Source of the DNA: a virus
Virus record (IMG/VR): IMGVR_UViG_3300034200_001896
Span: 1-64,000 of that record
Reading direction: 5' to 3' (one strand)
DNA length: 64,000 nucleotides
Position numbers and translations under genes: made by a program. How positions within the stretch are numbered: the stretch's first letter is position 1; each line of letters begins with the position of its first letter. Below the pieces are notes generated by a model. It worked only from the letters and a program-made list of their open reading frames with translations, was not told where the DNA came from and did not search any database. Shown here in pieces: positions 28,954-55,894 of this stretch.

Positions 28954-28995
28954 ATAAAAAGCAGCAAGACTAAAATAGAATAGTTGCAAATCTGC

Positions 28996-29026
28996 CGCCC
29001 ACCTGATACAATCAGGTGGGCGTTTT
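28996..29026 (+). terminator. Intrinsic terminator overlapping the next promoter
   Basis: CGCCCACCTGAT-ACA-ATCAGGTGGGCG-TTTT; TTGCAA(28984)-17-TACAAT(29007) overlaps it. Confidence 0.75.
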
Positions 29027-29040: not shown

Positions 29041-29496
29041 ATGACTGAAAACAAAACTAACATTTTAAAAGTTGCATTTCCTAATTTTATTCGTGAGAGT
29101 TTTTATATTGAATGTGGTAATGGTTGGTTTGATATTATTGCAGAGGTTTGTCAATTTATTGAATCAAAAACAAAATATTGCCACGCTCAACAAATTAAAG
29201 AAAAGTTCGGCCTACTCAGAATCTATTTCGATTGTGATTACGATGAAAATGGTGAACCATTAACCGATAGAGATACAATGGAAGAAATATATTCCTTTAT
29301 TAATAAAAAAGAAAGCGAAAGTAAAAACATATGTGAAGATTGTGGTATAAAGCTTGTAGAAGATAACAGGGCTAAGAAAGAACATCTTGGTTATTGGATT
29401 GCAAATATCTGTATGGATTGTCTTGATAGAACAAATCGGGAAGCATCAGAAAGATTAGAAAAAAAGATTTATAAGACCCTTAAAGAAAAGCCATGA
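29041..29496 (+). CDS. Conserved phage hypothetical protein (GW...QIKEKFGxLR family)
   Basis: CGNGWFDII...QIKEKFGLLRIY...CEDCG. Confidence 0.75.
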   Translation: MTENKTNILKVAFPNFIRESFYIECGNGWFDIIAEVCQFIESKTKYCHAQQIKEKFGLLRIYFDCDYDENGEPLTDRDTMEEIYSFINKKESESKNICEDCGIKLVEDNRAKKEHLGYWIANICMDCLDRTNREASERLEKKIYKTLKEKP

Positions 29497-31558
29497 GTGA
29501 ATTTAAATTAGGAGACTTAGTTGAATTCATCCCAGAAAACTTTGATTATCCAAATTATACATATCGCTTAATAGGTATTGGTTATATAGAACAAATTACA
29601 GAAGATAATATTTATTTCGTTTATTGCGGTAAAGTTATAAAACAACAAATGAAAAACTTTGCAGAACTAGAATTAAAAGATAAAACCTTTTCTTTTACGG
29701 AAGAAATAATGAGGATAATATGCAGGAAGATAAATTCAAAGTAGGAGACTTGTTAGAATTTTGTACAGAAAAGCAGCAGCTATGGAATCACGATGACTTG
29801 ATTTATGAAGGTTACGGAATGGTTGTTTCTATTGAGCCGGGAGAACATATAGATGAAATGATATATACAGTTGATATTTATAAAGGCACAGAAACAAGTA
29901 TAAAGGCTAATGCCGATATATCTGGATTTAAGTTTAAACTTTACGAGTCACAAATTCATCATGATATGAGGTTACTAAATGCGGGAACTAAAAATAAAAC
30001 CAGAGATAGGTAAATTATATAAATTCCGAGAAGATAATCGTGAAGCACTGTTAAAAAAATATAGTCACCATTATACTGGCTTGCTTTTATGTATTCAGAC
30101 AGATATAATAAATGATATAAGCGTTCCAGAATCTGTAAAAAATTGGGTTCAACATCCTAATCCTATATATCAATTTGAAGTTTATAACTGCGTACAGATA
30201 TTTGCACAAATAGATTTTTTCGGTAGAAAAGAAATAATTATTAAGTCTCCTTTGTATTTAACTCTTTTTGAACTAAACGATATGATAGAGGATGCATATG
30301 GCAAGAAAGAAACATAAAATTGGTGATTTAGTTTTATGCACTCCACAAGAAGAAGATGTTCGGTTTGTTTTTGGAATCATAAAAAGCTACGACCGTCAAT
30401 TTTACTTTGTCGATTGGACCGATGGTAATCATGACACGGAACCTTATTCTTGGCACGAAATTCAACACTGGAAAGAGATATTACAAAAACATGTTAAAGG
30501 TCGGTGATTTAATAATGAATAAGTTTGGTAATCTTGGAATGATAACCAGTTTAGTTTATCATCCAACTATTAAAAAATATAATAGTGGTTATGTTGAGTG
30601 GTATCCATATAATCCAAAACAAGGTAAAATTAATTTATCTATTTCTAAACTAGAAGAATATAGAGATAACTTTACTGGTTATATGTTTTTAGAAAAACGC
30701 GGGGCACGGGTAGAATGAAAAAACGCGAAGCGCCTAAAAAAATTTTTCCTCCCGGCTCACTCATCGCCATGCGTGATAGTAAATTAATAGGTATGATAGT
30801 AGAATATGACTACGATTCCAACCTCCATGATTGGTATCGTGTTGAATGGTTTGGTGCGAACGGCGAAATTGGATGGATGGAAACCCTAACATCACACGAA
30901 ATAAAGATATACACCCGTGAATATAAGCAATTGCGTAAAGACCTTGGCATCTAGAAAGACTATGGTATCATGTATCTATGAATCAGTTCCTTGGACACTT
31001 GGTAATGAATTATGCTTACAGGTTAGGAATGGTTATCTATACAGATATAGATAATGGTTGGCATACGGTTGAATGGTTGGGCGGCAACATAGAAATCGCC
31101 AGTTATCCTACATTTTCAATAACCAATTTTATCAGGACATACGAAAATTATAAGGATGAAAACAAGCTATGAACGAAAGCGAACTTTATCGTGTTGGAGA
31201 ATTGGTGCATTCCCGCCATGCAGGATATGGAATAATTACAAGTGTATACCAACACGGTGCAACTATCTATTGGTTTGAACTTAAGAAATATAGTCCCGAA
31301 GCATTTCATTGGGTAGCAACGTTTAAAAAGGATTTGTATAATAAATTACGGGGTGAAGAAGAATGAAATACGCAATCGGTGACCTTGTGGCGTTTGGTTA
31401 TAAAATCGGCATGATAACCAATTATGATGTTAAAGATAAAACATATCAAGTTGAATGGGCGGCAAATCGCTTAGAGCTTATTCCAGAGGAACGTGTTGGT
31501 GCCCTACGCGAACACTTTGTGACACTCAGGAATTTGCTAAAGCTATCAGGATATTCTA

Positions 31559-31777
31559 ATGGAATTTAAGATTGGTGATTTGATAGCGGTGGAAACAATA
31601 AACTCTTATCATAAAACAAGTAAAATAAATTTAGGAATGATTGTTGAAATTATATCAAATAGCGATACTCCTTATCGTGTAGAATGGTATGGATTACAAG
31701 TGAACCGTCCAGTATACATGCGACAAAGCATTGAACATATGCGTAGAACTTATATAAATTTTCGTAAAACAATATGA
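31559..31777 (+). CDS. Representative SH3/KOW-like paralog
   Basis: MEFKIGDLIAV...LGMIVE...YRVEWYG...RRTYINFRK. Confidence 0.8.
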   Translation: MEFKIGDLIAVETINSYHKTSKINLGMIVEIISNSDTPYRVEWYGLQVNRPVYMRQSIEHMRRTYINFRKTI

Positions 31778-32179
31778 ACTTTAAGATTGGTGACTTGGTA
31801 GCAACTCCGCAATGGACATTGCATGGCGATAAAACGTGCTTGGGCATGATTGTTGCCAGAAACACAAGCAGTTGGAAGGTAGATTGGTATGGAATAGAAG
31901 TGGAATTTTCTTGGTATACACCAGATGATATAAAACTATTTCGTAATAATTATTTAAAGTTGCGTAAGGAAAATGGAATTTAAACTTGGTGATTTAGTTG
32001 CCACAGATGCTTGGACACCAGAAGGATATAAAACATGCTTAGGCATGCTTGTATATAGAAGAGATGATTTATATTGGAAAGTTGATTGGTATGGTTGTTA
32101 TGTTAAAACGCCTTGGTATTTACCATATGAATTAAAACCGATGCGTGAAAAATATTTAGAATTACGTGACAACTTATGA
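31774..32179 (+). CDS. Two closely similar adjacent paralogs (31774-31983 and 31973-32179)
   Basis: FK(I/L)GDLVAT..WT..G.KTCLGM...WKVDWYG...WY.P..K..R..YL.LR in both. Confidence 0.85.
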
Positions 32180-34118
32180 AATACGGTGAACATTACATAG
32201 GCCACATGGTTGGTTATAGAGAAGACGACCGCTTTTCTATTGGCATGATTGTTGGATATGATGAAGATATTCCGCATGTTCCATATCGTGTTGAATGGTA
32301 TGGTGAATATAGGGGAACAAAATTGGTTAATTATACGTTAGCACAAATAATGTTTTACATGGACGAGTACAATAAATGGACGAAGAAGATATCCTAACAC
32401 GACCAAAAGTTGGCGATATGGTCATGGACATGGAAAATTATGGCATGATTATAGAACAGATTGGTAGCAAGTTCCTAGTTGAATGGTATGGCCGGATGCG
32501 TTATGCTTATCGCTATGATGTTTCAACGGTACGTTTGATGCGGCAAGACTTCTTGTATTATAAAAAACATGGCAGGCATCCATTGTCAATGTAAATATGA
32601 ACTATATTCCACGTATTGGCGACTTAGTGTTATATGAGTCTCTTCATGGCAAATCTACTCTTGGAATAATTAAGGGCATATATATCTATCCTTCGGATTT
32701 AGAAAATATACATCCAGATGATTTTGTTGGCAATCTTTACCGTATACTTTGGATAACCGAGAACGATGAAGCAGGATATATTATAGATAGGGTAAAGGAA
32801 TATAGACAGAATTATTTAAGATGGAGAAAAAATAATGGTTTATGAACCACAGGTTGGTGATTTGCTAGCGGTTGAAAACGAAAATTCTCAAATTGTGTTG
32901 GGAATGATATACAAAAAATATAAAAAGGGTGGACGGACAGATTACTATACGGTAGAATGGTTTGACGAAACAACGTCATATGAATACAACATTGGCGACA
33001 TAGATACATTTAGAATACAATTTGTAAAATGGCGAGACAGTGAATGCATCAACCTCCATACATAGGTGAATTGCTTGCTGTCCATGACTATAAAAAAGAT
33101 TATATTCTTGGAATGATTGTAGACATATGTGATGATGGTGATTTTCCATACGTTATAGATTGGTATTACAAAGACGCATCTGTTGTTGATTCAGCTTATA
33201 CAAGTTTAGAAGATGTGCTACTGTATCGTAAACGTTTTCGGGAACTAAAAAAGAAACTATGAACATAAATATTGGCGACCTTGTGTTACAAAACGGCAAT
33301 AACCTTGGTATGATTATTGGTGCATTTGATGGTCAATATATAGTTGAATGGTATGGCAATGATGATGTAACGCCATACAAGTTTAATTATTCGCCGTTTA
33401 TCACCGAAAGCTTTCGCAGAACATACATGAAATACAGGAAATGGATATGAAAGATTATATTCCAAAACTAGGTGATTTAATACTAAAGCATGTTGGTAAA
33501 GAATATATGATTGGAATGATTGTCGAAGAATATGCCTCCTCTTGGTCTGTGGAATGGATTGGTCGTGACCTCCTATATTCAGGATATACACAAACAGAAT
33601 TGATGCATGCCAGACAATCTTTCCTAAAGTTTAAGAAAACCCTATGAAACATCCTATCACAAAAGTTGGTGCCCTTGTTGCCCACAAAACTAATCCACAA
33701 AGTGAATTCACCTTGTTTGGTCATGTGGTGGAGATAGTCCAGAACGATAGCTACCCACATGGTTATGGTTATAGGGTTATTTGGCACAACAATGATAGCG
33801 ATGAATACGTTTACAACACGCGAGAAATAGATTACTATCTAGGTATAGTTGAGGAGTTGAAGAAACTATGAAAGCCCATGTCGGAAGTCTTGTTGCAGTT
33901 AAAATAACAGGGCTTCATGCGTTAAATAATGGCAGCAAAATAGTTGATGGTAGCAAACGCACAGGTTTATTATTTGGTCATGTGGTGGAGATAAAAGAGG
34001 GTAGCAAAAAGATTATTAAGCATTACCGTGTTATATGGGATAATGGTAACGAGTTTCTTTACAATGATTATGAAATGGATACATATCTAAAAAACATACA
34101 GGATATAAAGAACAGTTA

Positions 34119-34592
34119 ATGAGTACTACCTACCCACTACCCCACCACCCCCCCTCTACCCATCTACTACTCCAGCAGGGGGAGATGGTCTATATGATAA
34201 GCGGGAGATTAAAGCGTGAAAGGATGAAAGGATATTTCACTACATATTCCTATATGGACCCGCAAGAAGTAGTGGACAACTTTATAGCTAATGATAGTGA
34301 AGCTGTAGCCAAACGTAAATCCACCGGGGAACTAATAAATATAAGTACCCATATGATTGGTTATATCCTAAGCGATAGGAAGTATAGTGAACAACATGCT
34401 GTGATGCAAAGTCCCCTATTAATAGGTTATGATATCCGTTGGGAATATGCTCAGAGTAACGGGCATCATAATATCTTTGAAGATGAGGAAAGCATTGTGC
34501 CATTAAAAGACCTAATTATATTAAACCCAGAAGAATTAAAGGGTGAGGTCTTTAATGATGGTGGACCCAAGAAAGGTCAGCAAGCCGGATAA
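34119..34592 (+). CDS. Hypothetical protein, possibly an expanded SH3-like member
   Basis: QGEMVYM...IGYI...YDIRWE. Confidence 0.55.
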   Translation: MSTTYPLPHHPPSTHLLLQQGEMVYMISGRLKRERMKGYFTTYSYMDPQEVVDNFIANDSEAVAKRKSTGELINISTHMIGYILSDRKYSEQHAVMQSPLLIGYDIRWEYAQSNGHHNIFEDEESIVPLKDLIILNPEELKGEVFNDGGPKKGQQAG

Positions 34593-34670
34593 AGATAGAC
34601 CATACTTGTTGATTGATGTAACTATATCAACCATCCTGTTATATTTTTTATATTGTATAGTTTCTTAACA

Positions 34671-34746
34671 AGTCAGAAGCATGACGCCAAAAGCTTGTCA
34701 TGCCATATAGTTGACGCCAAGATTCTGTCGTGACCATATGTTGCCC
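34671..34746. repeat. Tandem degenerate 16-bp palindromes (consensus YGTCA-N6-TGACR)
   Basis: AGTCA-GAAGCA-TGACG, CGCCA-AAAGCT-TGTCA, TGCCA-TATAGT-TGACG, CGCCA-AGATTC-TGTCG. Confidence 0.7.
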
Positions 34747-35080
34747 TACTTGTAGCGTAAAGATTCTATACATGGGTGGCGCTAATAACTAACAATGGCA
34801 AAAGTAGAAAAACTAATACGGTGTGTTAGGGATTGGAAAAGGTGAGAGTATTTAACCCCCACGCACGAAAAAATATCTAATCATTTCAAGGGGTTACGCA
34901 ATCACATATTGTATATTCTTGCCTCGCTTAACAATTGACATAACACATGGTACCATGCCTAATCGTTGCTGTATAGCTCCCTATATTCCCTGTATATTAT
35001 TAGGTGATTATGTCTGCAATTAGATTGCGCTTGACTTCCCCATCCCTTGTGATATGATGGGGGAAGCCCGGCGGCTGGCG

Positions 35081-35144
35081 TGTCACATGGGGGTGACAGT
35101 ATGGAAAAAAGGGGTTGCGGGGATAGGGGTACCTGTGTTATACT
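35081..35144 (+). promoter_or_regulatory. Operator-promoter module 1
   Basis: TGTCAC-ATGGGG-GTGACA, 16 nt, TTGCGG-18-TATACT. Confidence 0.8.
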
Positions 35145-35236
35145 AATATCGCGGTGTGGGAGTCCGTGCTAGCCGCCATTATGGGTAAAAGGTCGGGAGT
35201 ATATCAGACCTAGGCCCCCTGTCAAGGGAAAAGTGA

Positions 35237-35299
35237 TGTCACCCGCAGGTGACACCCCGAAAACCTCTGCTTGCCAATATGGGGAGGGGGGTGTATTAT
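35237..35299 (+). promoter_or_regulatory. Operator-promoter module 2
   Basis: TGTCAC-CCGCAG-GTGACA, 16 nt, TTGCCA-17-TATTAT. Confidence 0.85.
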
Positions 35300-35337
35300 G
35301 GGTACATCTTCAACGGCGAACCACGGAGAGAAAAACA

Positions 35338-35928
35338 ATGGCATGGAAAGACGGCAAGCGTACAGTGATGTGCCGACGGTGTTATAGTTATGGGCATAAT
35401 ATGCGGTCCTGCCCTACAATGTCTCCAGAAATGAAGGCTATGTATAAGGATGGAGATAGGGCCCGCAAGTGCTCCTACTGTTCCGAGAAGGGTCACACCA
35501 AACGCAAGTGTGAGAAGCGAACCAAAGACATAGCAGAATACGCTGCCGAGAATAAGAAGTATCGGAAGGCTTATCTTGATGCTATGGTTCAGCATGGTCT
35601 GTCCATTGGTTCTCTTGTCACCCCCATGGGGGCACGTGGTGAAAAGGATTTGGGTGACATTAGCCCAGAATATATTGGCATGGTGACACACATTGAATGG
35701 AAAGACATTCAATATCGTCGTCGTTCCAATCGTCCTATCCAAGCTAAACGGTTGGGCGAACAAGAGAATAACTGGAATAATGATATGTGGTTGGGTAGTC
35801 CGCCAATCAATAGCAAGGATTATGAAAGCTGGGGCAGATGTCAAGTATTGTCCCGCCGTAATGATATCCTGTCTCATGTTCCCGCTGATTGGTTGGATGG
35901 ATTGAGCGGGGCAGAGGAGTTCTTCTAA
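35338..35928 (+). CDS. Double zinc-knuckle (CCHC) protein fused to an SH3-like domain
   Basis: CRRCYSYGHNMRSC, CSYCSEKGHTKRKC; LSIGSLV...GMVTHIEW. Confidence 0.75.
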   Translation: MAWKDGKRTVMCRRCYSYGHNMRSCPTMSPEMKAMYKDGDRARKCSYCSEKGHTKRKCEKRTKDIAEYAAENKKYRKAYLDAMVQHGLSIGSLVTPMGARGEKDLGDISPEYIGMVTHIEWKDIQYRRRSNRPIQAKRLGEQENNWNNDMWLGSPPINSKDYESWGRCQVLSRRNDILSHVPADWLDGLSGAEEFF

Positions 35929-35933
35929 CCCAC

Positions 35934-35993
35934 TGTCACCGCAGAGTGACGCCGAAAAAAACCGGTTGCGCTTCCCGGTGGTTGTGGCATAAT
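35934..35993 (+). promoter_or_regulatory. Operator-promoter module 3
   Basis: TGTCAC-CGCAGA-GTGACG, 14 nt, TTGCGC-16-CATAAT. Confidence 0.75.
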
Positions 35994-36048
35994 AGGTTCA
36001 TCAATCGCAGTTAACCACCCACGCAGTATAGCACAAACGAGGTTGCAC

Positions 36049-37098
36049 ATGGCTGTTGATTTCAAGACGTTCCTTAAGGTTGTTCCCCACGTTGCCGCTG
36101 TCAAGAAGCCTGTCCTTATCCGTGGTCGTCACGGTGTCGGTAAGAGCGAGACTGTGTATGCCTTTGCTGCCAATCGTGGCATGAAGGTTGTGGAGCGTCG
36201 GGCATCCCAAATGACCGAGGGTGACCTGATTGGTCTGCCGTCTATTGACGGTAACAGCACCAAGTTCAATCCTCCTGATTGGTTTAAGGATTGTTGCGAT
36301 AATGGTCGGGCGCTGTTTCTTGACGAGGTGGACCGTGCTACGCTTGAGGTTCGTCAGGGTATTTTCGAGTTGACCGATTCCCGCAAGCTTAACGGTCACA
36401 CGCTGCATCCTGATACGCTTATCTTTGCCGCTGTGAACGGTGGTGTGCATGGTGCACAGTATCAGGTGGGCGAGATGGACCCTGCCGAGTTGGACCGTTG
36501 GACTGTCTTTGACCTTGAGCCTTCCGTTGATGATTGGCTTGATTTTGCAAAGACTAACGCTGACGGTCTGATTTGGGATTTCATTAACCAGAACCGTGGG
36601 CACCTTGAGCACAAGGGAGAGTTTGAGCCTAACAAGGTTTATCCCTCTCGTCGTTCTTGGATGCGTCTTAATGAGTGTCTGACCCATGCGGGCTTCCTTG
36701 GTACCGATGTTAAGAATAACCTCACTCCTATCTATGAGATTGGGTGTGCCTTTGTTGGCTTTGAGGCTTCGGTTGCCTTCCGTGACTTTGTTGACAAGTA
36801 TGAGCGTCAGGTGACTATTGACGACATTCTTGCTGGCAAGCTTGAGAAGGTTAAGGATTGGGGCATCAATGACCACACCGCTATGGCAGACAAGCTTGTT
36901 GCGTCGGGTCTGTTTAAGGAGGAGTTGACCGATGCAAAGATTGACGCTGTTTGCAAGTATGCTCACCTTATGCCGTCTGAGGTTTGCATGAAGTTCTGGC
37001 GTGCCTTGTCGGGTGAGAATGTCAAGAACACGGTCAAGATTCACGATAAGCTTTCCGACCGTATCATCACCATTCTTAATCCCGCTGCCAAGAAGTAA
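36049..37098 (+). CDS. MoxR-type AAA+ ATPase
   Basis: GRHGVGKS Walker A, LFLDEVDRA Walker B, AAVN, MDPAELDRW, PSRRSW. Confidence 0.92.
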   Translation: MAVDFKTFLKVVPHVAAVKKPVLIRGRHGVGKSETVYAFAANRGMKVVERRASQMTEGDLIGLPSIDGNSTKFNPPDWFKDCCDNGRALFLDEVDRATLEVRQGIFELTDSRKLNGHTLHPDTLIFAAVNGGVHGAQYQVGEMDPAELDRWTVFDLEPSVDDWLDFAKTNADGLIWDFINQNRGHLEHKGEFEPNKVYPSRRSWMRLNECLTHAGFLGTDVKNNLTPIYEIGCAFVGFEASVAFRDFVDKYERQVTIDDILAGKLEKVKDWGINDHTAMADKLVASGLFKEELTDAKIDAVCKYAHLMPSEVCMKFWRALSGENVKNTVKIHDKLSDRIITILNPAAKK

Positions 37099-37109
37099 TG
37101 CATGACATT

Positions 37110-37140
37110 GCGGGGGAGGTTGAATGACTCCCCCGCTTTT
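37110..37140 (+). terminator. Intrinsic terminator
   Basis: GCGGGGGAG...CTCCCCCGC-TTTT. Confidence 0.8.
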
Positions 37141-37171
37141 GTTGTATGTCTTTGCCTAGCCGCCCAAATAT

Positions 37172-37474
37172 ATGACAAAACTGGAACAAGAGTATAGAAG
37201 CAATATTGGCAAGTTATTTGTTCACCGTGATAGACAATGGACAGGAGCAGCTAAAGGTTGGGTGTTGGTAGGTGATTTGGTAATGATTGAGAAGGTGGAG
37301 AAACAGGGAGGATGGTATCACTATCACATGGAGATTATCAAACGCAATCTAGATAATGTGCCAGATATAAAAGATTCTAGAAATAAGCGTATTGTATCTT
37401 GCCGAGAGTTTCACAGGCACAGCGAATCCCCCCTGTCACTCTTGGGTGACACGGAAAACAAGGAGGTTGCATAA
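37172..37474 (+). CDS. Hypothetical protein, YxxxIGKLF subfamily
   Basis: YRSNIGKLF; 3' end contains operator module 4. Confidence 0.7.
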   Translation: MTKLEQEYRSNIGKLFVHRDRQWTGAAKGWVLVGDLVMIEKVEKQGGWYHYHMEIIKRNLDNVPDIKDSRNKRIVSCREFHRHSESPLSLLGDTENKEVA

Positions 37475-37494
37475 ATCTCAGGATGGGGTACTAT
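37434..37494 (+). promoter_or_regulatory. Operator-promoter module 4
   Basis: TGTCAC-TCTTGG-GTGACA, 15 nt, TTGCAT-16-TACTAT. Confidence 0.8.
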
Positions 37495-37524
37495 GTATCC
37501 ATAACTCGCTGATGGAGAAGCACA

Positions 37525-38721
37525 ATGGCTAACGAGACTGAGCAGTTCGACCTTGACCGTTATATCTACAATCTCTTGCAGAACGAGCCGTTCTTTGCAG
37601 AGATTTCCCGCCATGTTGAGAAACGTTCCAGCACCGCAATCCCTACCGCTGGTGTGCGTATCACCAAGGAGGGACAGTTTGAAATGATGTATAACCCTGC
37701 CTTCTTCCAGAAGCTTACCCGTGAGCAGCGGGCAGGTGTTATCAAGCATGAGTTTTATCATTTGGTTTTCGGTCACGTCACTGACCGTATGCCTGATGGT
37801 AAGATGTCTAAGAAGTGGAATATTGCAACTGACCTTGCAATCAATAGTCATATCAAGGATGAACTGCCCTCAATGGCTTGCATCCCCGGTGTTGGTCCCT
37901 TCAAGGATTTGCCGTTGTTTGAATCGTCTGAGTGGTATTATAACAATCTGCCAAAGCAAGACGAAAAGAGCGGCAAGGGATTGGGTGAGGGTTCTCCTGA
38001 TGGTGGTGGTGAGGGTGAATCTGATTCCTTCGACGACCATTCCCAGTGGGGTGAGAACGCAGAGAACCTTGACCCCGGATTGCGTGAACTCGCCAAGGAA
38101 CGTCTGCGTGAAATGATGCGAAGCGCAGCAGAGGAGGCCAACAAATCCTCTAATGGTTGGGGTTCTGTCACTCATAATATCCGCAAGGAGATTATGGACC
38201 GTATCTCTGGCAAGATTGATTGGCGTGCGGTGCTGCGCTACTTCATCAAGACCTCTCAGCGTTCTGCAAAGACTAGCACGGTTAAGCGTATCAACAAGCG
38301 TTACGCTTACATCCATCCCGGTCAGAAGGTGCAGCGTCATGCTAAGATTGCCATTAGCATTGACCAGAGCGGTTCTGTCTCGGATGAAATGCTGGAAGCT
38401 TTCTTCTCTGAACTAAACAACCTTGCAAAGATTGCCACGTTTACTGTGGTACCCTTTGATACGGAGGTTGATGATAACCTTGTTTATGTTTGGAAGAAGG
38501 GAATGTCTCGCAGGAAGGAACGTGTTAAGTATGGCGGAACTGACTTTGACGCTCCAACCAAGTATGTTAATGATAAGGGGTTCGATGGACATATAGTGCT
38601 TACAGATATGCAGGCACCAAAGCCTATCACTAGCAAGTGCCAGCGTATGTGGATGACTACTAAAGATTGTATGTCGTCGGCCCCTTTTAAGACTCATGAG
38701 CGGGTAATCCCTGTTGAATAA
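37525..38721 (+). CDS. DUF2201-type metallopeptidase plus VWA domain protein (MoxR partner)
   Basis: IPTAGV, KHEFYH, NIATDLAIN, DQSGS (MIDAS), GGTDF, LTD. Confidence 0.9.
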   Translation: MANETEQFDLDRYIYNLLQNEPFFAEISRHVEKRSSTAIPTAGVRITKEGQFEMMYNPAFFQKLTREQRAGVIKHEFYHLVFGHVTDRMPDGKMSKKWNIATDLAINSHIKDELPSMACIPGVGPFKDLPLFESSEWYYNNLPKQDEKSGKGLGEGSPDGGGEGESDSFDDHSQWGENAENLDPGLRELAKERLREMMRSAAEEANKSSNGWGSVTHNIRKEIMDRISGKIDWRAVLRYFIKTSQRSAKTSTVKRINKRYAYIHPGQKVQRHAKIAISIDQSGSVSDEMLEAFFSELNNLAKIATFTVVPFDTEVDDNLVYVWKKGMSRRKERVKYGGTDFDAPTKYVNDKGFDGHIVLTDMQAPKPITSKCQRMWMTTKDCMSSAPFKTHERVIPVE

Positions 38722-38732
38722 ATAAACACATA

Positions 38733-38770
38733 TGGTGTGGGCAGTAAGGCAGACGATACTGCCCACACCA
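38733..38770. terminator. 14-bp-stem hairpin, possibly bidirectional terminator
   Basis: TGGTGTGGGCAGTA-N10-TACTGCCCACACCA. Confidence 0.75.
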
Positions 38771-38820
38771 ATGATGTTTGATATAGCATTGCGGGGGCTG
38801 GGAATGGCAATAAACCTCCC

Positions 38821-38943
38821 AGTATATCAAAATCCAGCCGCCCCGTCAAGCACTATTTTCTACCTGTCACCTACGGGTGACGTAACGTGGGGGTGACACC
38901 CTCTAAAAAACCGGTTGCAAAAAGGCGAGAGCAGAAGTATTAT
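38821..38943. promoter_or_regulatory. Double operator with divergent promoters (module 5)
   Basis: Minus: TTGACG-17-TATACT (38849-38821); sites 38865-82 and 38881-98; plus: TTGCAA-17-TATTAT. Confidence 0.85.
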
Positions 38944-38949
38944 CTACCT

Positions 38950-39297
38950 ATGACCCCCACCGAAAAGCAATACGCAAAGAATGTTGGCAAGTTGTTTATC
39001 GCTAAGGACAGGCGATACAATACGGATAAGCAAAAGTTTGAGCATACTCATACTCTTTGTTTTGTCTATGGTATGTACCGTACTGGTTACAATGGTAAGA
39101 ATGGTGCATATGGTTACAAGATACAATCTCTTTTTCCTAAACTAGAACAAGATTGGAGAATGGATTATACTATAAGGTGTAAAGAGTTTAATGAAGGTGG
39201 TAGACGTGGCCACTGGCACAGGATGGATTATCTCCCCGCTACTCCTGAGAATACGGAACTGATTGGAAAAGTTATTGACGTGCCAGAAAATGAATGA
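38950..39297 (+). CDS. Hypothetical protein, IGKLF subfamily; predicted leaderless
   Basis: YAKNVGKLF; ATG 6 nt after the -10 box. Confidence 0.7.
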   Translation: MTPTEKQYAKNVGKLFIAKDRRYNTDKQKFEHTHTLCFVYGMYRTGYNGKNGAYGYKIQSLFPKLEQDWRMDYTIRCKEFNEGGRRGHWHRMDYLPATPENTELIGKVIDVPENE

Positions 39298-39309
39298 TAA
39301 GATGATTAT

Positions 39310-39645
39310 ATGAGTCAGACAGAAAAGCGATACAACAAACACATAGGCAAACTGTTTTGGTGTGGTGAACGAACATATAATACAGATGTAAGCGGATATC
39401 ATCATTACTTTACGCTTGTAATGATTAGGGGAATAGAAAAAGAAAAATACAACAAGAAATACCAATATATTGTAGATGTAATATCTTCCCCATATAAACA
39501 TAACGAAGGAGAAACTTACAAAGTTGGATGTGCGTATTTCTGTAATGATTTGTTGGAAGTTATTACCCAGTATGGAAATGGATACTTCCCAGCGACTACA
39601 GGAGATTTAGAAAAAGATGTTGCCCAAATCCAGAAAGCGTGTTAA
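39310..39645 (+). CDS. Hypothetical protein, IGKLF subfamily; predicted leaderless
   Basis: YNKHIGKLF; TTGACG-17-TAAGAT-6-ATG. Confidence 0.7.
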   Translation: MSQTEKRYNKHIGKLFWCGERTYNTDVSGYHHYFTLVMIRGIEKEKYNKKYQYIVDVISSPYKHNEGETYKVGCAYFCNDLLEVITQYGNGYFPATTGDLEKDVAQIQKAC

Positions 39646-39892
39646 GATGGGTTGCAAGCACAAGTATCAAGTCCGCATCGGATACGAGGAAGCGGAAAGC
39701 TTTGCAGGAGATATGTATCAGCTAGAAGTGACAGAGGTTTATGAATGTTTGGACTGTAAGAAAATCGTCAAGGTCTAGAAAAAAGATATTGACCTCCAGC
39801 ACAAAATAGAATAAGATGGTTTCTGAAGTTAAGCGAAGTGATTGCAGTTAACCCTAACCAGAAGTTCACTCTCACTAAGGACAATAACTATT

Positions 39893-40183
39893 ATGGCTAC
39901 CATTTCTAACTCTGACGTTCTCTCCGCTGTGCAGACTTTCGTTTCCTCTAACAACCGTCCCTGCCCTGCCCATTTCCTGACTGAGAAGTTTGGTGATGAT
40001 GTGCTGGATGTGATTGACGAGTTGAAGGCTTCGGGTGTTCTGCTTGGTCTGCGTGGTCGCAACGGTGGTCTTGCCACTCCTGATTCCGAGATTGTGGCTA
40101 AGCGTTCTGCCAAGTCTAAGACTGTAAGCAATACTAACGAGCCTGCCTCCGAGGCTGCCGAGACTGTGGCTGCCGTTGGGTAA
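39893..40183 (+). CDS. Small winged-helix protein with Rrf2-like wing motif
   Basis: IDELKASGVLLGLRGRNGGL; RBS AAGGA; own promoter and downstream hairpin 40203-40242. Confidence 0.55.
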   Translation: MATISNSDVLSAVQTFVSSNNRPCPAHFLTEKFGDDVLDVIDELKASGVLLGLRGRNGGLATPDSEIVAKRSAKSKTVSNTNEPASEAAETVAAVG

Positions 40184-40427
40184 GCTGATGTAGATGTGGT
40201 AAAGGCAGGGAGGCAGAAACTTTAACTCTGTCCTCCCTGCCTGTTGTTTCTAACATAAGGATTAACCAAAATGTCACTGTGGCGTTGTTCAGTTTGTCAT
40301 AAGGCAGGTCTTGAAGATGATTTTGTTTTCGTTCCTGTTGATGATACTCATGAGGATATATACTGTTTTGATTGTGCTCCTCCAGAGGCAATGAAACAGC
40401 ATTGGCCTGTCGATGAGGAGGAAGACA

Positions 40428-40712
40428 ATGACAGCGACTGAGAGGAATTATAGAAAGTATCTTGGCAAGCTTTATTGGTCTACTAACAGAGGTTCGCTTG
40501 TGACTATCGAAGCAGTTAAACGTTCACAATACGGTAACCGTTGGAAATTTGATATATTCTATATGAATGCCAACGTTGGACAGCAGACTAGAAAGATTGA
40601 TTGTGTAAGAATAGCCAACCTAATTAAAGAAGGTACTTGGATTCCAGCAGACCAGTATATCAAAAACCCGCCTCCCGCTGTCAAGCTGAAAGTAGCAGAA
40701 AAAAGTTGTTGA
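40428..40712 (+). CDS. Hypothetical protein, IGKLF subfamily
   Basis: YRKYLGKLY; RBS GAGGAGG. Confidence 0.7.
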   Translation: MTATERNYRKYLGKLYWSTNRGSLVTIEAVKRSQYGNRWKFDIFYMNANVGQQTRKIDCVRIANLIKEGTWIPADQYIKNPPPAVKLKVAEKSC

Positions 40713-40745
40713 CTTCCTCCACCACTCTGGTATTATCTTCCCATC

Positions 40746-41423
40746 ATGAGCACTTGGAAATACAACCGAATGTATGCAGCACAGGCACGTACTCCTGTTG
40801 AGAAGGTTACGGATGCTACCATCCCCACTCGCATTGATGCTATTCTGAATAACGGTATCTGTAACGATTGGGAAAAGAACTTCTGTACTTCCATTAAGGA
40901 AAGCTTTACCAAGTATCAGGGTCTGACTAAGGGGCAATATGATACGTTTGTGAAGGTTGAACAGCGTTACGATTCTGCTGCTGTTACGGCACGTAATAAC
41001 TGGAATGCCGCTTGGGATGCCAGCAAGAAGGCGAAGTGGGATAAGATGATTGAGTATTATTCCAAGACACCTTACTACAAGGGAGCGACGGATAAGGTTA
41101 GGGTTAATCCTAACTATATCCCCAGCGAAAAGGAATACGCTGCAATCTGCGAAAACAAGTATGCTGTCAAGATGCTTGCCCAGCAGAATATTCCTCCCAA
41201 GTATAAGTGTGGTGAGCTGACTGTGTATAAGGAATATGGTAACTATCGTTTGGCAACTGTTGTTGAAGTTGGCAACGTTGATAGTTGGGTTAAGGGTAGT
41301 CGCACTTACAAGATTAACATCGTGGGTGAAGCTGCCATTAAACTAGTTGAGGAGCGGGATATGTTGTATTACCGTGACTCGATTATCCCCAAGTTGACTA
41401 AAAAGGATGAAGTACCTTTTTAG
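40746..41423 (+). CDS. Hypothetical protein with C-terminal SH3-like domain and acidic EVPF tail
   Basis: WEKNFCTSI...LTKGQ; PKYKCGEL...; ends DEVPF. Confidence 0.7.
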   Translation: MSTWKYNRMYAAQARTPVEKVTDATIPTRIDAILNNGICNDWEKNFCTSIKESFTKYQGLTKGQYDTFVKVEQRYDSAAVTARNNWNAAWDASKKAKWDKMIEYYSKTPYYKGATDKVRVNPNYIPSEKEYAAICENKYAVKMLAQQNIPPKYKCGELTVYKEYGNYRLATVVEVGNVDSWVKGSRTYKINIVGEAAIKLVEERDMLYYRDSIIPKLTKKDEVPF

Positions 41424-41473
41424 TTCACACTGAAAGCCCACTGTGATACTATATACACAGTGCGGCGGCTAGC

Positions 41474-41632
41474 ATGGAAAACAAAACAATGAACAAAGAT
41501 ATCAAGACCCGAGACTATTTCATGTTGCTTATTATCAACGGTGTTACCAAGAGCGGCACCCATAAGGATAAGAAGCGGGAACAAAATAAAAAAGAGTGCA
41601 GAAAAAAGGTTGACACTCGCAGGGAAGATTGA
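41474..41632 (+). CDS. 52-aa basic protein (not in ORF track)
   Basis: MENKTMNKDIKTRDYF...SGTHKDKKREQNKKECRKK; promoter TTCACA-17-TACTAT upstream. Confidence 0.55.
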   Translation: MENKTMNKDIKTRDYFMLLIINGVTKSGTHKDKKREQNKKECRKKVDTRRED

Positions 41633-42685: not shown

Positions 42686-42898
42686 ATGGAAATCAAAGAA
42701 GGTGACTTGGTTTGGAATAAATTTAATGGCTATGGGACGGTACTAAAGATTAGGATTGAATATTGCGCCGTCTATTGGTATGCACCGACAAACCCAACAG
42801 AGAACACAAACTATCTTAAACCAGATTATCATGTAAAGTATGTAAGACAGTGGAAACGTAATGTTGAAGATAAATGCAGCGTTAGCTCAATTGGATAG
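42686..42898 (+). CDS. SH3/KOW-like paralog
   Basis: IKEGDLV...GTV...VYW. Confidence 0.7.
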   Translation: MEIKEGDLVWNKFNGYGTVLKIRIEYCAVYWYAPTNPTENTNYLKPDYHVKYVRQWKRNVEDKCSVSSIG

Positions 42899-43368: not shown

Positions 43369-43572
43369 ATGACAACAATAAATGTTGGTGATTTGCTGCG
43401 TACTAATAGTTGGTTTGGTGTTGTGATGCGTATAGATGAAGGAAATAATTACGAAGAAACTGCATATATGGTTCACTGGTTCTTCCCTGACAATAGAAAT
43501 CCTATTAGTATGATAAACGGTTATAATGCATTAAAGTATAGAATTAATGTATTGACAATACTTGGAAAGTAG
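43369..43572 (+). CDS. SH3/KOW-like paralog
   Basis: VGDLL...GVV...YMVHW; 3' end encodes TTGACA-17-TATAAT for tRNA-Tyr. Confidence 0.75.
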   Translation: MTTINVGDLLRTNSWFGVVMRIDEGNNYEETAYMVHWFFPDNRNPISMINGYNALKYRINVLTILGK

Positions 43573-43733: not shown

Positions 43734-44848
43734 ATGTTAAAGACAAGAAAGCTGAATCTAGGTGACTTGGTTGCGGTAACAGAGCATAAAGACAATATCA
43801 CTATTGGAATGATTGTAGAATTTGACGATGCTTATACTACCTACAAGATTGAGTGGTGCAACGGTAAACATATCTGGGCTAAGGCATCGTGGATAACTAC
43901 CCAACAGTACCGTAACATTTTCCTTGACTGGAAGGCACAACTGTTATAGGATACTTCCCGTGAACGACCCTTACATCGGCAAGTTGTTCCTCATGGATTG
44001 GCATCCTCCATCGTTCGGTGTTAACCCGACTCAGCGTATATATCTTTTCATGGTTGTCGGCAAGGGTAAAGAACATCATACCAAGCAAGGTTATATTTGT
44101 GAGTCCCTGACTTCGGGTAGGCAATATATCTACAACGAATACGAGATTATCTCAGGACTTGTGCAATACAAGCAATGGAAGGAGCAAAATAATGTTTGAT
44201 ATCCGCGAAGGTGATAGTTTGTTGGGTTATAGTATTGCTACCAAGGATTATATTGTTGGCATCGTTACTGATATTAAGCTTGACGCAATTGCCCGTAAGC
44301 AGTATAATGTTCATTGGGCTGATGCACAAGTTGGATGGTTGGACCATAACACCGCTGTACGTTTGCGTGAGAAATATCTTGACTTCCGCAACAAGTAGGG
44401 TATAGTGTTTATCATGGATATCAAAATCGGTGACAGTGTTGCGTTCATTGGCAGTGTTGCATCCACTGGTAAATCTTTCAGCTACGTTGGCGTGGTGTCA
44501 AAGATATCTAACCATAACCCTCGTTATTGTGTTTCTTGGAATGACGGTACGGAAACTTACGAAGATAGTCCTGAGATTGCCATTTTCCGAAAACAATACC
44601 TTGACTTCCTCAACAAGTAGGGTATAGTAACTATCATGGATATCAAAGTCGGTGACAGTGTAGCATTTAAGCCTAGGAAAACGTCTAACGAATACGATTT
44701 GGGAATCGTTGTAAATATAATTCCAAACAAAAATTACTGTGTAAAGATAATATGGAATGATGTTGCATTTCCCTCTAGTGAGACTGTTGAGTTAATGGCG
44801 GACGCTCTAGAGTTCCGTCAGATTTATCTTGACCTTCTCGCAAAGTAG
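43734..44848 (+). CDS. Five SH3/KOW-like paralogs (43734-43949, 43960-44199, 44192-44398, 44414-44620, 44636-44848)
   Basis: GD(L/S)V...G(M/I/V)V...W motif; four of the five start 7 nt after a -10 box. Confidence 0.8.
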
Positions 44849-52715: not shown

Positions 52716-53215
52716 ATGGAAAATCTCAATCTAATCGGACGTTTAATAGCCTTCCACACCAATTTTGCAAGAACAAAAATAATATTGGGTGTAGTATCTG
52801 ATACACGGATGGTGACATCAAAAAACTTATTTGGCTTTAAAAAACAAATAACAGAATATAAGATTGTTTGGCAGGATAAGGAATATGACGATACATGGAC
52901 AACAGAAAATGGCATTAAAACAGGCGCAGAAATATTAAATAACTATAAAAATTTATGAAAAACTCATCCATCAAAGTAGGTGACCTTGTGCTTTGCAAGG
53001 CAAAAATAGACCCAAGTTATGATTTTGAAGATAAAAATATAAAACTTGTGATTGGGTGGATAACAAAAAAAACTACAACTACTTTTATGGATGGTAAATT
53101 TACAATTTTCCATGTACAATGGAGCGACAAAGAAACAGATGGTGAATTAAAAGAGGAAGATGCACTATCGGTACGTAATTTTTTCTTAAAAATGCGAAAG
53201 GAATGGGGTATTTAA
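52716..53215 (+). CDS. Two SH3/KOW-like paralogs (52716-52958, 52955-53215)
   Basis: IGRLI...GVV...YKIVW; VGDLV...GWI...VQW...FLKMRKEWGI. Confidence 0.75.
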
Positions 53216-53552: not shown

Positions 53553-54412
53553 TTGGACACGTTCAACGAAAAGAGCATTTCTATAGGCGCTTTAGTGCGT
53601 ATAAAGGTGCATGGAGCAAAGCGCTATCTTGGCATCGTCACGGAACGCATTTGGCACGGCAATGCTAAAAAACTAGGTTATACTGTTTACTTGATGGAAC
53701 TGGAAGCTAGCATCATGATGTTCGACCATGAATTTGAGGTTTTAAGTGATAAAGTATCGTAATCCAATAGCAATTGGTGCTTTAGTAAAAGATAAAAGCA
53801 CAAAACGCCTAGCAATCATTCTAGATAAAATGAGCACTAGCGAATGGGAGCGAACTGATAAAGATAATGAATTCAATGCTGGAATAGTTTATGGCATGCA
53901 ATTTATGGACGGAATAGGACCGTTTAAGACATATCGGTACGCTTATGAGGTAGAAGTACTAAGTCGAGGAAAGGAGAATGGATAGAAAGGTAATAGATTT
54001 TAAAATAGGTGACCTTGTTTACCTAAACATAGAAAATGGCGACGGTGGGATGGGGATGGTTATAAGCGATATAGTTTATACGGAAATAGAGTTTTATTAT
54101 GCTGTTTTCTCCATGCGGGAAAATAAAATCATAATTGCGTTCCCTTATGAATTGGAATTAGTACGTGGCTAACTATTTATATGTATGGGGAACAAAAGAA
54201 TCATTCCAGACGTTCATATACCAATTGGTGCGCTTGTGAGAGTTAATATCATAAAGCGTAGAGAAGATTTAGCCGTTGTTGTAGATAAAAACGTTGGCTT
54301 ACTTGAAAACTGTTGGTATATGGTCCATAGCTTAAGCACTGGTAAAGAATATATGGCATATCCTCATGAACTTGTTTGGTTAACTAAGGAAAGGGATGGT
54401 GAAAGCGGGTAA
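53553..54412 (+). CDS. Four SH3/KOW-like paralogs ending in (Y/F)xxE(L/F/V) (53553, 53746, 53978, 54185)
   Basis: IG(A/D)LV...(G/A)(I/M/V)V...Y..EL/EV. Confidence 0.75.
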
Positions 54413-55463: not shown

Positions 55464-55894
55464 ATGGCATTCCGTAGACCATGTTATGTAAAGGTAGGTG
55501 ATTTAGTTCGTACCCGTGGAGATTTAGATATCTACGGATATGTTACATATATTGATGGTAACAGCGAAACTGGTGAATATTACGTAGAAATAGTTTTCGA
55601 TGAGGACGCTGACCCATTGTATTTTTATGATGACCAACTGGAAGTATTAACGGTAATTAAAGAATAATGGAACATAACATAGGCGATTTGCTCCTTGCAC
55701 ACACCGTTGATGGTGGTATAATGTTTGGAATAATAACAAAGATAGATGAATCTTTATTTGACAAAAATTTTAACTTATACACCGTAACTTGGTTTCAAAA
55801 AAATAATATTCAAGATACCCGTGACTATACATACAACAACATAACTCGTTTGAAAAAAAATTTAGAAGATTATTTTAATAACGATAGGGTTTAA
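55464..55894 (+). CDS. Two SH3/KOW-like paralogs (55464-55667, 55667-55894)
   Basis: VGDLV...GYV; IGDLL...GII...YTVTW. Confidence 0.75.

Follow-up and report, generated by a model that had tools for sequence, protein, structure and literature searches.

The window analysed here, a 64,000-nucleotide stretch, belongs to an 85,763-bp source record, an uncultured giant phage fragment that is ~34% complete according to CheckV. Positions 29493–34119 are filled by 21 consecutive plus-strand ORFs of 63–112 aa each, which bears out the uninterrupted run described in an earlier inspection of the letters by themselves (the sequence-only reading). The main unit (first gene at 29041, members at 29.5–34.1 kb) is packed, with overlap at 20 of 22 gene junctions, nine of them as ATGA, suggesting that its genes are probably translationally coupled. 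The region shows no excess of promoter-like sites (35 against 34 expected). The features of the unit are as follows; members are those of the family defined by the profile searches below, and orthologues and sister copies are those of a sister phage, with percent identity. Unless marked otherwise, E-values are those of the profile of mostly foreign relatives.

28984..29022, +: terminator-like hairpin at 28996–29022 (12-bp stem, 8 G-C pairs, T tract)
Overlapping the hairpin, 18 nt before the 29041 gene: sigma-70-like promoter match, TTGCAA-17-TACAAT with TG (consensus match only)
29041..29496, +: first gene of the unit, non-member, 151 aa, Cys-rich; no Pfam match; hhalign 0.3%; orthologue 93%, dN/dS 0.06
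29493..29744, +: probable divergent member, 83 aa; HMM E 5.5e-4 (iterated search) and 0.0067 (foreign-relative profile); hhalign 88.9%, 58 columns; family match of its orthologue 8e-6
29720..30013, +: member, 97 aa; foreign-relative profile E 4.1e-5; orthologue 93%, dN/dS 0.06
29979..30317, +: embedded non-member, 112 aa
30292..30507, +: member, 71 aa; E 1.2e-19; looks like a swapped allele (sister copy 58%, dS 1.26)
30491..30718, +: member, 75 aa; E 3e-11; orthologue 95%; start picked to fit that orthologue
30715..30954, +: member, 79 aa; E 3.1e-13; sister phage has another member as gene body (breakpoints 30751, 30949)
30978..31172, +: member, 64 aa; E 1.1e-11; orthologue 89%
31169..31366, +: member, 65 aa; E 4.1e-5; sister copy 49%, dS 1.24
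31363..31569, +: member, 68 aa; E 2e-12; orthologue 98%
31559..31777, +: member, 72 aa; E 2.5e-20; no close orthologue in sister phage (breakpoints 31582, 31768)
31774..31983, +: member, 69 aa, the modelled protein; E 2.5e-20
31973..32179, +: member, 68 aa; E 1.2e-13; closest paralogue pair with 31774
32176..32397, +: member, 73 aa; E 1.7e-16; orthologue 97%, dN/dS 0.04
32376..32594, +: member, 72 aa; E 3.4e-12; orthologue 94%
32597..32845, +: member, 82 aa, longest second loop; E 1.7e-15; sister copy 58%, dS 1.27
32835..33065, +: member, 76 aa; E 4.3e-19; two extra members directly before it in sister phage
33044..33262, +: member, 72 aa; E 1.3e-16
33259..33450, +: member, 63 aa; E 9.1e-14
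33441..33647, +: member, 68 aa; E 1.4e-14; one extra member directly before it in sister phage
33644..33871, +: member, 75 aa; E 3e-15
33868..34119, +: member, 83 aa, longest first loop; E 4e-9; one extra member after it in sister phage

A first HMM, built from 18 ORFs of the 29493–34119 run and tested on window ORFs of at least 40 aa on both strands, recovered 18/18 of its own ORFs and 12 of 378 others (E<1e-3), while minus-strand ORFs all stayed at E=1.9 or worse. The iterated search settled at 31 family members in the window; a second profile, made from 138 relatives mostly foreign to the window, likewise retrieved 31 window ORFs at E<1e-3, and a six-frame search of the entire 85,763-bp record gave 32 matches, 32/32 of them within the window. 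An HMM from the paralogues, as proposed in the sequence-only reading, thus defines one family, with 31 members in the window and a probable 32nd (ORF 29493); the ~32 stand-alone proteins range from 63 to 97 aa. The large expansion noticed in that reading is real, but its count of about 40 copies comes down to 31–32 by profile searches. Where it had counted about 21 tandem paralogues, 19 are sure members (29720–34119) and 29493 is a probable one, whereas ORF 29979, which gave no HMM match (hhalign 1.6%), was rejected. The latter is a real conserved gene, with an orthologue 87% identical and a dN/dS of 0.16. Elsewhere in the window, 12 sure members lie at 42.7–44.8, 52.7–54.2 and 55.5–55.9 kb, and six members are surrounded by tRNA genes:

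42686..42898, +: member, 70 aa, immediately after tRNA-Glu; E 1.9e-4 (first HMM round 8.9e-4)
43369..43572, +: member, 67 aa, after tRNA-Arg; E 9.8e-9
43734..43949, +: member, 71 aa, after tRNA-Tyr; E 3.3e-20; orthologues of 51–100% identity in 9 loci retrieved
44192..44398, +: member, 68 aa; E 1.1e-11
44414..44620, +: member, 68 aa; E 7.3e-14
44636..44848, +: member, 70 aa; E 8.3e-14
52716..52958, +: member, 80 aa; E 3.7e-12
52955..53215, +: member, 86 aa; E 1.6e-16
53553..53762, +: member, 69 aa, TTG start, without Trp; E 6.1e-4 (first round 6.6e-4)
53978..54172, +: member, 64 aa; E 6.9e-6, match limited to the N-terminal two thirds
55464..55667, +: member, 67 aa, strongly acidic (pI 4.1), without Trp; E 1.4e-4
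55667..55894, +: member, 75 aa; E 3.1e-19
35338..35928, +: possible fusion of a pair of CCHC zinc knuckles (zf-CCHC_2 E 3.5e-4, short of the Pfam cut-off) to a stretch resembling the domain's first half

Other copies proposed at 46349, 54185, 43993 and 53746 were rejected as unsupported by hhalign, and those at 1867, 12701 and 58640 gave only weak scores (31–49%, against 0.2–0.7% for five control ORFs). The suggested C-terminal fusions held up poorly: the match at 35338 is partial (hhalign 84% over 29 columns) and its structure model poor (pLDDT 47.8), and that at 40746 is weak (19.5%).

Conservation is concentrated in the first strand (I-G-D-L-V), the second (L-G-M-I), the third (Y-x-V-E-W) and the hydrophobic face of the helix. 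Both glycines occur in 31/31 window members and the V-E-W tryptophan in 27/31, in agreement with the shared GDLV...GMIV...YxVEW motif reported earlier; among the 138 relatives, both glycines are found in 100%, the Trp in 99%, the Tyr in 82% and a basic residue at the helix position in 86%. The two loops joining the conserved strands are indeed variable in length and sequence, with spacings in window members of 9–30 residues from Gly to Gly and 13–28 from Gly to Trp. No N-terminal hydrophobic leader was seen by eye in the member sequences. AlphaFold modelled the 31774 protein with a pLDDT of 90.7 and a pTM of 0.78, placing strands at residues 8–10, 23–29 and 34–38 and a helix at 50–67. On the basis of this one modelled member, the family is predicted to adopt a small SH3-type (Tudor/chromo-type) barrel packed on an amphipathic, basic C-terminal helix, consistent with the fixed small β-barrel scaffold and basic helix that had been anticipated.

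The best structural matches of the model were the SMN Tudor domain (1g5v, Z 5.9) and the PWWP domain 6kco (Z 5.6), then MBT and chromo barrels (MPP8, MRG15; Z 5.2–5.5); these scores are middling (Z <6) and are equalled by those of numerous unrelated small barrels. Foldseek assigned probabilities of 0.96–0.98 to Tudor/PWWP/chromo/MBT-type matches, with 6kco at the top. In PDB sequences, similarity of the family profile to these eukaryotic 'Royal family' readers was borderline (E 0.015–0.02; NSD3 PWWP 0.015, MPP8 chromodomain 0.017). Members and Royal-family domains share a ~60–70-residue SH3-type barrel with a C-terminal helix, and the MPP8 chromodomain aligns with members at the Y-x-V-x-W third strand, the next aromatic residue and the helix; Royal-family domains, however, are parts of chromatin proteins, whereas the members are stand-alone phage proteins. 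No Pfam or NCBIfam family fits, no member reaching a Pfam cut-off. The searches turned up neither a family nor a function already described for the members; the sequence-only reading likewise knew of no function for such an array. The sole library family with repeated matches was PHROG 1690, which carries no annotation; it matched 7 of the 138 relatives (best E 1.3e-6) and one of the 31 members in the window (E 0.0033), with three weak six-frame matches in the source record, and differs in that the weak match covers only the middle of the domain.

KOW domains (NusG, Spt5, ribosomal L24) resemble the members in their SH3-like barrel, the G-D-x-V of the first strand and the glycine of the second, and differ from them in lacking the added C-terminal helix and in the first loop, which spans 9–30 residues in members. 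The members might be mimics of KOW, CarD or UvrD-Tudor domains that latch on to the host's RNA polymerase or ribosome and redirect transcription or translation. Structural matches to the UvrD C-terminal domain on the RNAP lobe (7egs, Z 4.5), CarD (4l5g, Z 4.4) and Spt5 KOW (Z 4.2–4.5) point in this direction, as do weak CarD_TRCF_RID and PcrA_UvrD_tudor Pfam matches in distant multi-repeat relatives. These structures, however, tie with dozens of unrelated barrels and score below Tudor/PWWP; the suggested NusG-KOW mimicry finds support at the level of the fold only. L24 and eS4 gave sequence E-values of 0.2–0.6, and the Pfam matches listed for the 138 relatives include one CarD_TRCF_RID (E 0.0045), one KOWx_SPT5 (E 0.031) and no KOW family. 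Moreover, a single conserved target would not call for 32 diverged copies, and we consider this explanation very unlikely.

Like some PWWP, Tudor and Sso7d-type barrels, the members could be small binders of ssDNA, RNA or DNA with a role in coating, chaperoning or marking the nucleic acids of the phage or its host. The first Foldseek match, 6kco, is a stand-alone PWWP solved with ssDNA, and the basic helix, the tRNA genes around six members and the possible partial copy joined to two zinc knuckles at 35338 fit this role, although the last amounts to a 29-column match in a poorly modelled protein. Charge is mixed, with pI ≥8 in only 7/31 members and ≤6 in 13/31, which argues that members are not general nucleic-acid binders, and generic binding poorly explains 32 very different copies. 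This alternative is therefore unlikely, if still worth weighing.

The history of the array was examined against a sister phage whose flanking proteins are 83–98% identical. Paralogues have a mean identity of 23%, and the closest adjacent pairs, 31774/31973, 33644/33868 and 44414/44636, reach 55%, 45% and 44%, so that the first two, previously called near-duplicates, are well diverged. By contrast, sister-phage orthologues are 76–98% identical in 13 of 16 pairs; since orthologues are far closer than paralogues, the duplications are old and predate the split of the two phages. The gene accordion suggested in the sequence-only reading, taken as recent tandem amplification still under way amid a current arms race, could draw on the slightly greater similarity of adjacent paralogues (28.3% vs. 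25.2% identity, permutation p=0.011) and on copy numbers, a comparison proposed earlier, that differ between relatives (23 members in the sister phage vs. 20 in the window). The maximum identity of 55%, the absence of DNA repeats >43 nt, the age of the duplications and dN/dS below 0.4 throughout nevertheless largely refute it, leaving it highly improbable.

All 16 orthologue pairs have a dN/dS of 0.04–0.38, showing that member genes are kept individually by purifying selection. By site, as had been suggested, dN/dS was 0.28 (95% CI 0.20–0.38) in loop codons and 0.13 in the core, with amino-acid differences at 235/637 loop vs. 87/580 core positions (p=2e-18). Quicker loop change is expected of any protein, and a loop dN/dS of 0.28 indicates constraint, not diversifying selection; no arms-race signature appears at this time scale. 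The same selection, together with intact, tightly packed reading frames and a scaffold kept across 576 clusters in public metagenomes (50% identity, E≤1e-3), makes neutral or selfish filler ORFs of no use to the phage scarcely credible, even though turnover of gene content would suit them.

Relative to the window, the sister phage has four whole genes inserted and the bodies of two others replaced, the breakpoints falling at gene junctions, and in near-identical contigs carrying the second cluster, 100%-identical genes adjoin copies of 30–57% identity. The array is thus an old multigene family whose whole-gene cassettes are exchanged among related phages by insertion, loss or replacement. Recombination probably takes place in the conserved coding sequence at the 5' and 3' gene ends, and related phages accordingly carry different member sets. 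Among metagenomic relatives, nearly all are stand-alone, unnamed and 63–95 aa long (141 of 150 clusters among the matches listed are ≤100 aa), and 106 of 146 are <40% identical to every window member, indicating that other phages hold other repertoires. A search for longer relatives found only three multi-repeat proteins, without an enzyme domain, and no informative fusion partner.

Small barrels such as the Sm proteins form mixed rings from paralogues. The members could similarly be co-expressed subunits of mixed oligomers, or virion-associated or internal proteins; gene overlap in one unit suggests similar dosage, and tail-fibre-like genes lie upstream at 16–24 kb. Differing gene content between near-identical phages would be unusual for the parts of one assembly, however, and members are spread over at least four clusters and vary widely in charge and loop length, which renders a structural role quite improbable. 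We tentatively favour, at a little under an even chance, a repertoire of single-domain binders, shuffled between phages, that would serve in host takeover or counter-defence. Each putative binder would engage a different partner through its variable loops, which would border the face where SH3/Tudor/chromo barrels usually take up their ligand, and during infection the phage may use the set to capture proteins of the host or of rival phages, blocking or redirecting them.

Parts of such a system have precedents. In bacteria, chromo-like domains occur as repeats of a single secreted polypeptide, joined to peptidases of the caspase-like and other types (Kaur, Iyer, Subramanian and Aravind 2018, PMC5906684). 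They share with the members a prokaryotic chromo/Tudor-type SH3 fold in multiple copies, and the distant relative P0149, with six repeats after an N-terminal hydrophobic leader, recalls them; the members, in contrast, are separate one-domain genes. The accessible portion of that paper describes none from phages; 'bacteriophage' occurs there only for an integrase structure. The jumbo Bacillus phage G carries about 35 zinc-ribbon copies, a lineage-specific expansion (Iyer et al. 2021, PMC7824862) whose products are guessed to bind DNA or act as transcription factors. There too, a single large phage has some 30 or more versions of a very small domain, but that domain is a zinc ribbon rather than an SH3-type barrel, and the accessible text reports no cassette exchange. 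In T4-type phages, hyperplastic regions and PeSL cassettes (PMC2839356, PMC4122927) hold small genes of unknown function that are inserted, deleted or replaced whole among close relatives, as here. PeSLs, however, are intergenic promoter/stem-loop units, whereas the main array has no intergenic space, so that exchange within it would need conserved coding ends.

One family of unnamed small SH3-type-barrel proteins takes up approximately 7 kb of the 64-kb window. Its main array, between 29493 and 34119, consists of 21 ORFs of 63–112 aa lying back to back. A seed HMM built from 18 ORFs of this run and searched against 396 plus- and minus-strand ORFs of ≥40 aa (197 and 199, respectively) recovered all 18 seeds and 12 of the remaining 378 ORFs at E<1e-3, all 12 on the plus strand; the 199 minus-strand ORFs gave no family match (best E=1.9). 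The iterated search converged at 31 window members. The same number of window ORFs (31, E<1e-3) was retrieved by a profile of 138 relatives, mostly foreign; this profile is in part dependent on the window, since 31774 itself and several sequences matching window members exactly or closely are among the 138. Searching the complete 85,763-bp record in six frames gave 32 matches, every one inside the window. The confirmed members, named by start coordinate, were distributed as follows:

29720 to 34119, plus strand: main array, 19 genes
42686-44848, plus strand: second site, six genes
52716-54172, plus strand: third site, four genes
55464-55894, plus strand: fourth site, two genes

From its sequence, ORF 29493 is probably a further member: its E value is 0.0067, hhalign gives 89% across 58 columns, and its orthologue in a related phage (hereafter the sister phage) scores E 8e-6. 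ORF 29979 (112 aa, mid-run) was rejected in the hhalign comparison; it is a real conserved gene, with an orthologue 87% identical and a dN/dS of 0.16. The sequence-only reading had counted about 21 tandem paralogs in the run and about 40 in the window. Expansion over several sites was borne out, with 20 of the 21 ORFs in the run retained (29493 counted as probable, 29979 excluded), and the window total came down to 32. Among the further copies it had proposed, that at 42686, five in 43369-44848, four in 52716-54172 and the two at 55464-55894 stood, 46349, 54185, 43993 and 53746 were unsupported by hhalign, and 1867, 12701 and 58640 reached just 31–49%, compared with 0.2–0.7% for five control ORFs. 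Fusion of similar domains to the C-termini of two larger proteins was at best weakly confirmed: 35338 has a partial match of 29 columns (hhalign 84%) C-terminal to two CCHC zinc knuckles, and 40746 reached 19.5%. The protein encoded at 35338-35928 comprises the two knuckles, a helix and then a segment similar to the family domain's first half; the Met codon at 35338 is probably its start, to judge by the sister phage, and its structure model was set aside (pLDDT 47.8).

The source record is a linear viral sequence of 85,763 bp, estimated by CheckV as ~34% complete. The window contains 132 ORFs of ≥55 aa on the plus strand versus 50 on the minus strand. It encodes GroEL (best phage matches just 44% identical), adenylosuccinate synthetase and eight tRNAs, and is therefore a piece of a large uncultured phage. 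The G+C content is 0.43–0.49 in the block 34000-52000 and 0.31–0.39 elsewhere in the window, and the following features lie within this block:

36049-37098 and 37525-38721: AAA_5 (MoxR-like) ATPase and, after it, DUF2201 metallopeptidase/VWA protein, together a conserved two-gene pair
37172-37474, 38950-39297, 39310-39645 and 40413-40712: four copies of a second small family, ~100–115 aa
41737-43690: tRNA cluster (Ile-TAT, Leu, Lys, Gln, Asn, Glu, Arg-TCT, Tyr)

The tRNA-Glu, tRNA-Arg and tRNA-Tyr genes are each followed by a member of the main family starting 2–45 nt downstream. The four-copy family shares the N-terminal start T-E-K-x-Y-x-K-x-I-G-K-L-F, its own HMM matches these four ORFs only, and kinship of 37172, 38950, 39310 and 40413 with the main family was rejected (hhalign 2%).

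The window members of the main family are separate proteins of 63–97 aa, and no N-terminal hydrophobic leader was seen by eye in their sequences. Across the 138 relatives both glycines are invariant, the Trp of the Y-x-V-E-W motif is 99% conserved and its Tyr 82%, and the positions Y34, W38 and Y48, which bear on a possible cage for methylated lysine or arginine like that of the Royal family, are aromatic in 93%, 99% and 67%, respectively. The C-terminal helix carries hydrophobic or aromatic residues in an i, i+3, i+4, i+7 pattern and Arg or Lys at one position in 86% of the relatives. In the 31 window members, spacing is 9–30 residues from Gly to Gly and 13–28 from Gly to Trp, and 16–21 from Trp to Arg in 27 of the 31. 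The AlphaFold2 model of 31774, computed from the 31-member alignment (pLDDT 90.7, pTM 0.78), consists of three strands with a short bridge and a helix at 50–67. Foldseek returned no PDB match at E≤0.001 for this model; its top rows were PWWP (6kco), MBT and Tudor domains with probability 0.96–0.98. An independent structure search gave SMN Tudor (Z 5.9), PWWP (5.6) and the ARF1, BAHCC1 and FXR1 Tudor-type domains (5.3–5.5), the top Tudor, PWWP and MBT rows all falling within Z 5.0–5.9, whereas UvrD-CTD, CarD and Spt5 KOW were lower (Z 4.2–4.5), with numerous other barrels scoring the same as Spt5 KOW. All of these are middling Z values, and by the tool's own warning values below 8 may reflect just a common arrangement, so the modelled likeness to Tudor, chromo and PWWP domains shows the fold class only. 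Searched against PDB sequences, the family profile gave borderline matches (E 0.015–0.02), among them the PWWP domain of NSD3 (E 0.015) and the chromodomain of MPP8 (E 0.017), with alignments that take in the third strand, the aromatic residue after it and the helix, and BFVD returned uncharacterised phage proteins only. The earlier description as SH3/KOW-like was thus right at the level of the SH3-like barrel, with the nearest shape of the model being Tudor/chromo/PWWP rather than KOW. The KOW proteins (NusG/Spt5/L24) have the barrel in common with the family, but no match to a curated KOW profile reached Pfam's cut-off: Pfam gave none in ten window members and listed no KOW family for the 138 relatives, one of which had KOWx_SPT5 at a sub-threshold E of 0.031. 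Mimicry aimed at RNA polymerase or the ribosome, which the sequence-only reading had suggested, appears improbable to us.

No Pfam family reached its cut-off in the ten window members, the 138 relatives or nine marginal ORFs, and no NCBIfam family did so in the 31 window members. Below cut-off, Pfam matches among the 138 relatives included Tudor_5 in three, Chromo in one and PWWP in one. The sole recurring PHROG, phrog_1690, itself of uncharacterised function, matched seven of the 138 relatives and one of the 31 window members at E≤0.01, its best match in the record being weak (3.7e-4); other PHROG matches were also weak and of uncharacterised families. In agreement with the sequence-only reading, none of these three libraries tied the proteins to a single well-characterised family. 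A tblastn search of three family proteins against 50,697 cultured-phage records found none, a weak test for proteins of ~70 aa at ~30% identity. The ESM Atlas neighbours were unnamed viral clusters only (scores ≤0.90), and source databases label the proteins "hypothetical protein" or leave them unnamed. In the published articles searched, no description of the family or of a phage chromo/Tudor expansion was found.

Scanned in full with HMMER, 1.84 billion representatives yielded 576 clusters (50% identity) at E≤1e-3, and 106 of 146 relatives were less than 40% identical to every window member. Among the 150 clusters listed of the 576, 141 are ≤100 aa and nine are longer and mostly multi-repeat; of these nine, three carry a C-terminal DUF3310, and in one, of 405 aa, an N-terminal hydrophobic leader precedes six full repeats. 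P0113, P0134, P0191 and P0149, distant metagenome relatives, comprise three or four helix-less repeats with a C-terminal DUF3310, or the six-repeat form. The DUF3310 fusions were set aside as a functional clue, as they belong to a distant sub-type without the helix. A search for longer proteins gave three multi-repeat proteins, all without enzyme domains, and no peptidase fusions were found among the relatives searched.

Paralogue identity in the window averages 23%, with top pairs at 55%, 46%, 45% and 44%, three of these four being adjacent. Neighbouring paralogues are slightly more alike (28.3% vs 25.2%, permutation p=0.011). DNA repeats are confined to motif-coding patches, of which the longest measures 43 nt (70–72% identity). 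The expansion therefore arose by old tandem duplications. A recent gene accordion, the ongoing tandem duplication which the sequence-only reading saw in adjacent near-duplicates, is very improbable; near-identical tandem copies are lacking, and neither paralogue identities nor DNA repeats in the window show a sign of ongoing amplification.

In the sister phage (G001, locus L001), flanking proteins are 83–98% identical to those of the window, and all 16 member orthologue pairs have dN/dS values of 0.04–0.38. Each copy is thus under selection, and the notion that the array is junk is hardly credible. For the pairs 30292, 31169 and 32597, dS is 1.24–1.27, compared with 0.13–0.92 for the other 13, and these three look like swapped alleles rather than fast evolvers. 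Differences between window and sister phage concentrate in the loops (235 of 637 loop vs 87 of 580 core positions, p=2e-18). In the 13 orthologue pairs left after omission of the saturated 30292, 31169 and 32597, dN/dS was 0.28 (CI 0.20–0.38) for loop codons and 0.13 (0.08–0.19) for core codons. The claim of a fixed scaffold with variable loops was thereby confirmed, positive selection in the loops was rejected, and no current arms race was seen in this comparison.

The sister phage has 29 family matches in 61 kb and 23 members in the array region, versus 20 in this region of the window, so copy number differs between related phages. According to blastn, the differences are whole genes: the sister phage has four genes inserted, two ahead of 32835, one ahead of 33441 and one behind 33868, and two gene bodies replaced (30751-30949 and 31582-31768), with exchange breakpoints at gene junctions or within ~35 nt of them. 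In the second cluster (43.3–44.9 kb), near-identical contigs contain extra genes and 100%-identical genes adjoining 30–57%-identical copies. All eight metagenome loci fetched via the orthologue of 43734 have 4–7 members clustered, including the locus of a more distant phage, in which that orthologue is 51% identical. Identical proteins are also present on contigs of up to 188 kb. Members are thus exchanged between phages cassette-wise.

The array genes form a co-packed unit, 29041 to 34592, in which 20 of 22 junctions overlap, nine as ATGA, the sole gaps being 23 and 2 nt; the second cluster has short spacers between its genes. At three junctions with 11-nt overlaps (31559, 31973 and 32835) N-G-I or N-G-L forms the C-terminus of the upstream product, and at 31559 and 31973 the bases for this tail double as the code for M-E-F-K at the beginning of the downstream gene. 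Many foreign relatives have this tail too, so the overlapping junction itself seems to be old and inherited along with the gene unit. One feature immediately precedes the first gene of the unit:

28996-29022: strong terminator-like hairpin that overlaps a sigma-70-like promoter match

In this region (28984-29022) the hairpin loop carries the -10 box of the promoter match, which has an extended -10 and lies 18 nt upstream of the unit's first gene. The array region shows no enrichment of promoter-like sites.

The ligand face of SH3, Tudor and chromo barrels is bordered by two loops, one following the first strand and one following the second, and loop variation around this face would most simply mean a different partner for each member. 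We consider a repertoire of single-domain binders for host takeover or counter-defence to be the leading reading, falling only slightly short of an even chance. The pI of the members ranges from 4.1 to 9.5 (≥8 in seven and ≤6 in 13 of the 31), and this mixed charge disfavours generic nucleic-acid binding; that these are nucleic-acid binding proteins retains a minor, if appreciable, probability. Assembly or structural roles are quite unlikely. A more specific version of the binder repertoire, rather unlikely in our estimate, would be a shuffled library of stand-alone chromo/Tudor-type "reader" modules for counter-defence or host takeover. The two variable loops would tune each module to a different host or rival-phage protein, perhaps at modified or tagged residues, and phages would trade the modules as whole-gene cassettes through recombination at conserved gene ends, giving a modular repertoire on the same fold by which eukaryotes read chromatin marks. 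A tie between such modules and the phage's own ATE-like transferase, encoded 2 kb upstream, is pure speculation.

In public data the family amounts to at least 576 clusters at 50% identity without an assigned function. If its members are specific binders, they would constitute a natural, ready-made library of tiny, stable binding modules and an indication of which host systems giant phages have to neutralise. Unit-wise exchange without intergenic cassettes suggests that a repertoire can be reshuffled via conserved gene ends alone, and the resemblance to chromo, Tudor and PWWP domains bears on the origin of those eukaryotic readers.

The nearest precedent that we found in print for the copy expansion is the ~35-copy zinc-ribbon expansion of Bacillus phage G, as reported in PMC7824862. 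For the exchange process, it is the PeSL cassettes of T4-type phages (PMC2839356, PMC4122927), which are described there as an intergenic promoter and stem-loop between shuffled genes, whereas the main array, with its overlapping junctions, lacks these. The family has the barrel and the C-terminal helix of the chromo and PWWP forms of the Royal family (Tudor/chromo/PWWP), but no significant sequence match to a curated family. The bacterial chromo-like domains described in PMC5906684 are secreted, repeated within one polypeptide and fused to peptidases, with no phage versions named there; the window members, in contrast, are single separate proteins. New, then, is a large, unnamed, Tudor/chromo-like family of stand-alone proteins with cassette exchange, an expansion of a kind already known.
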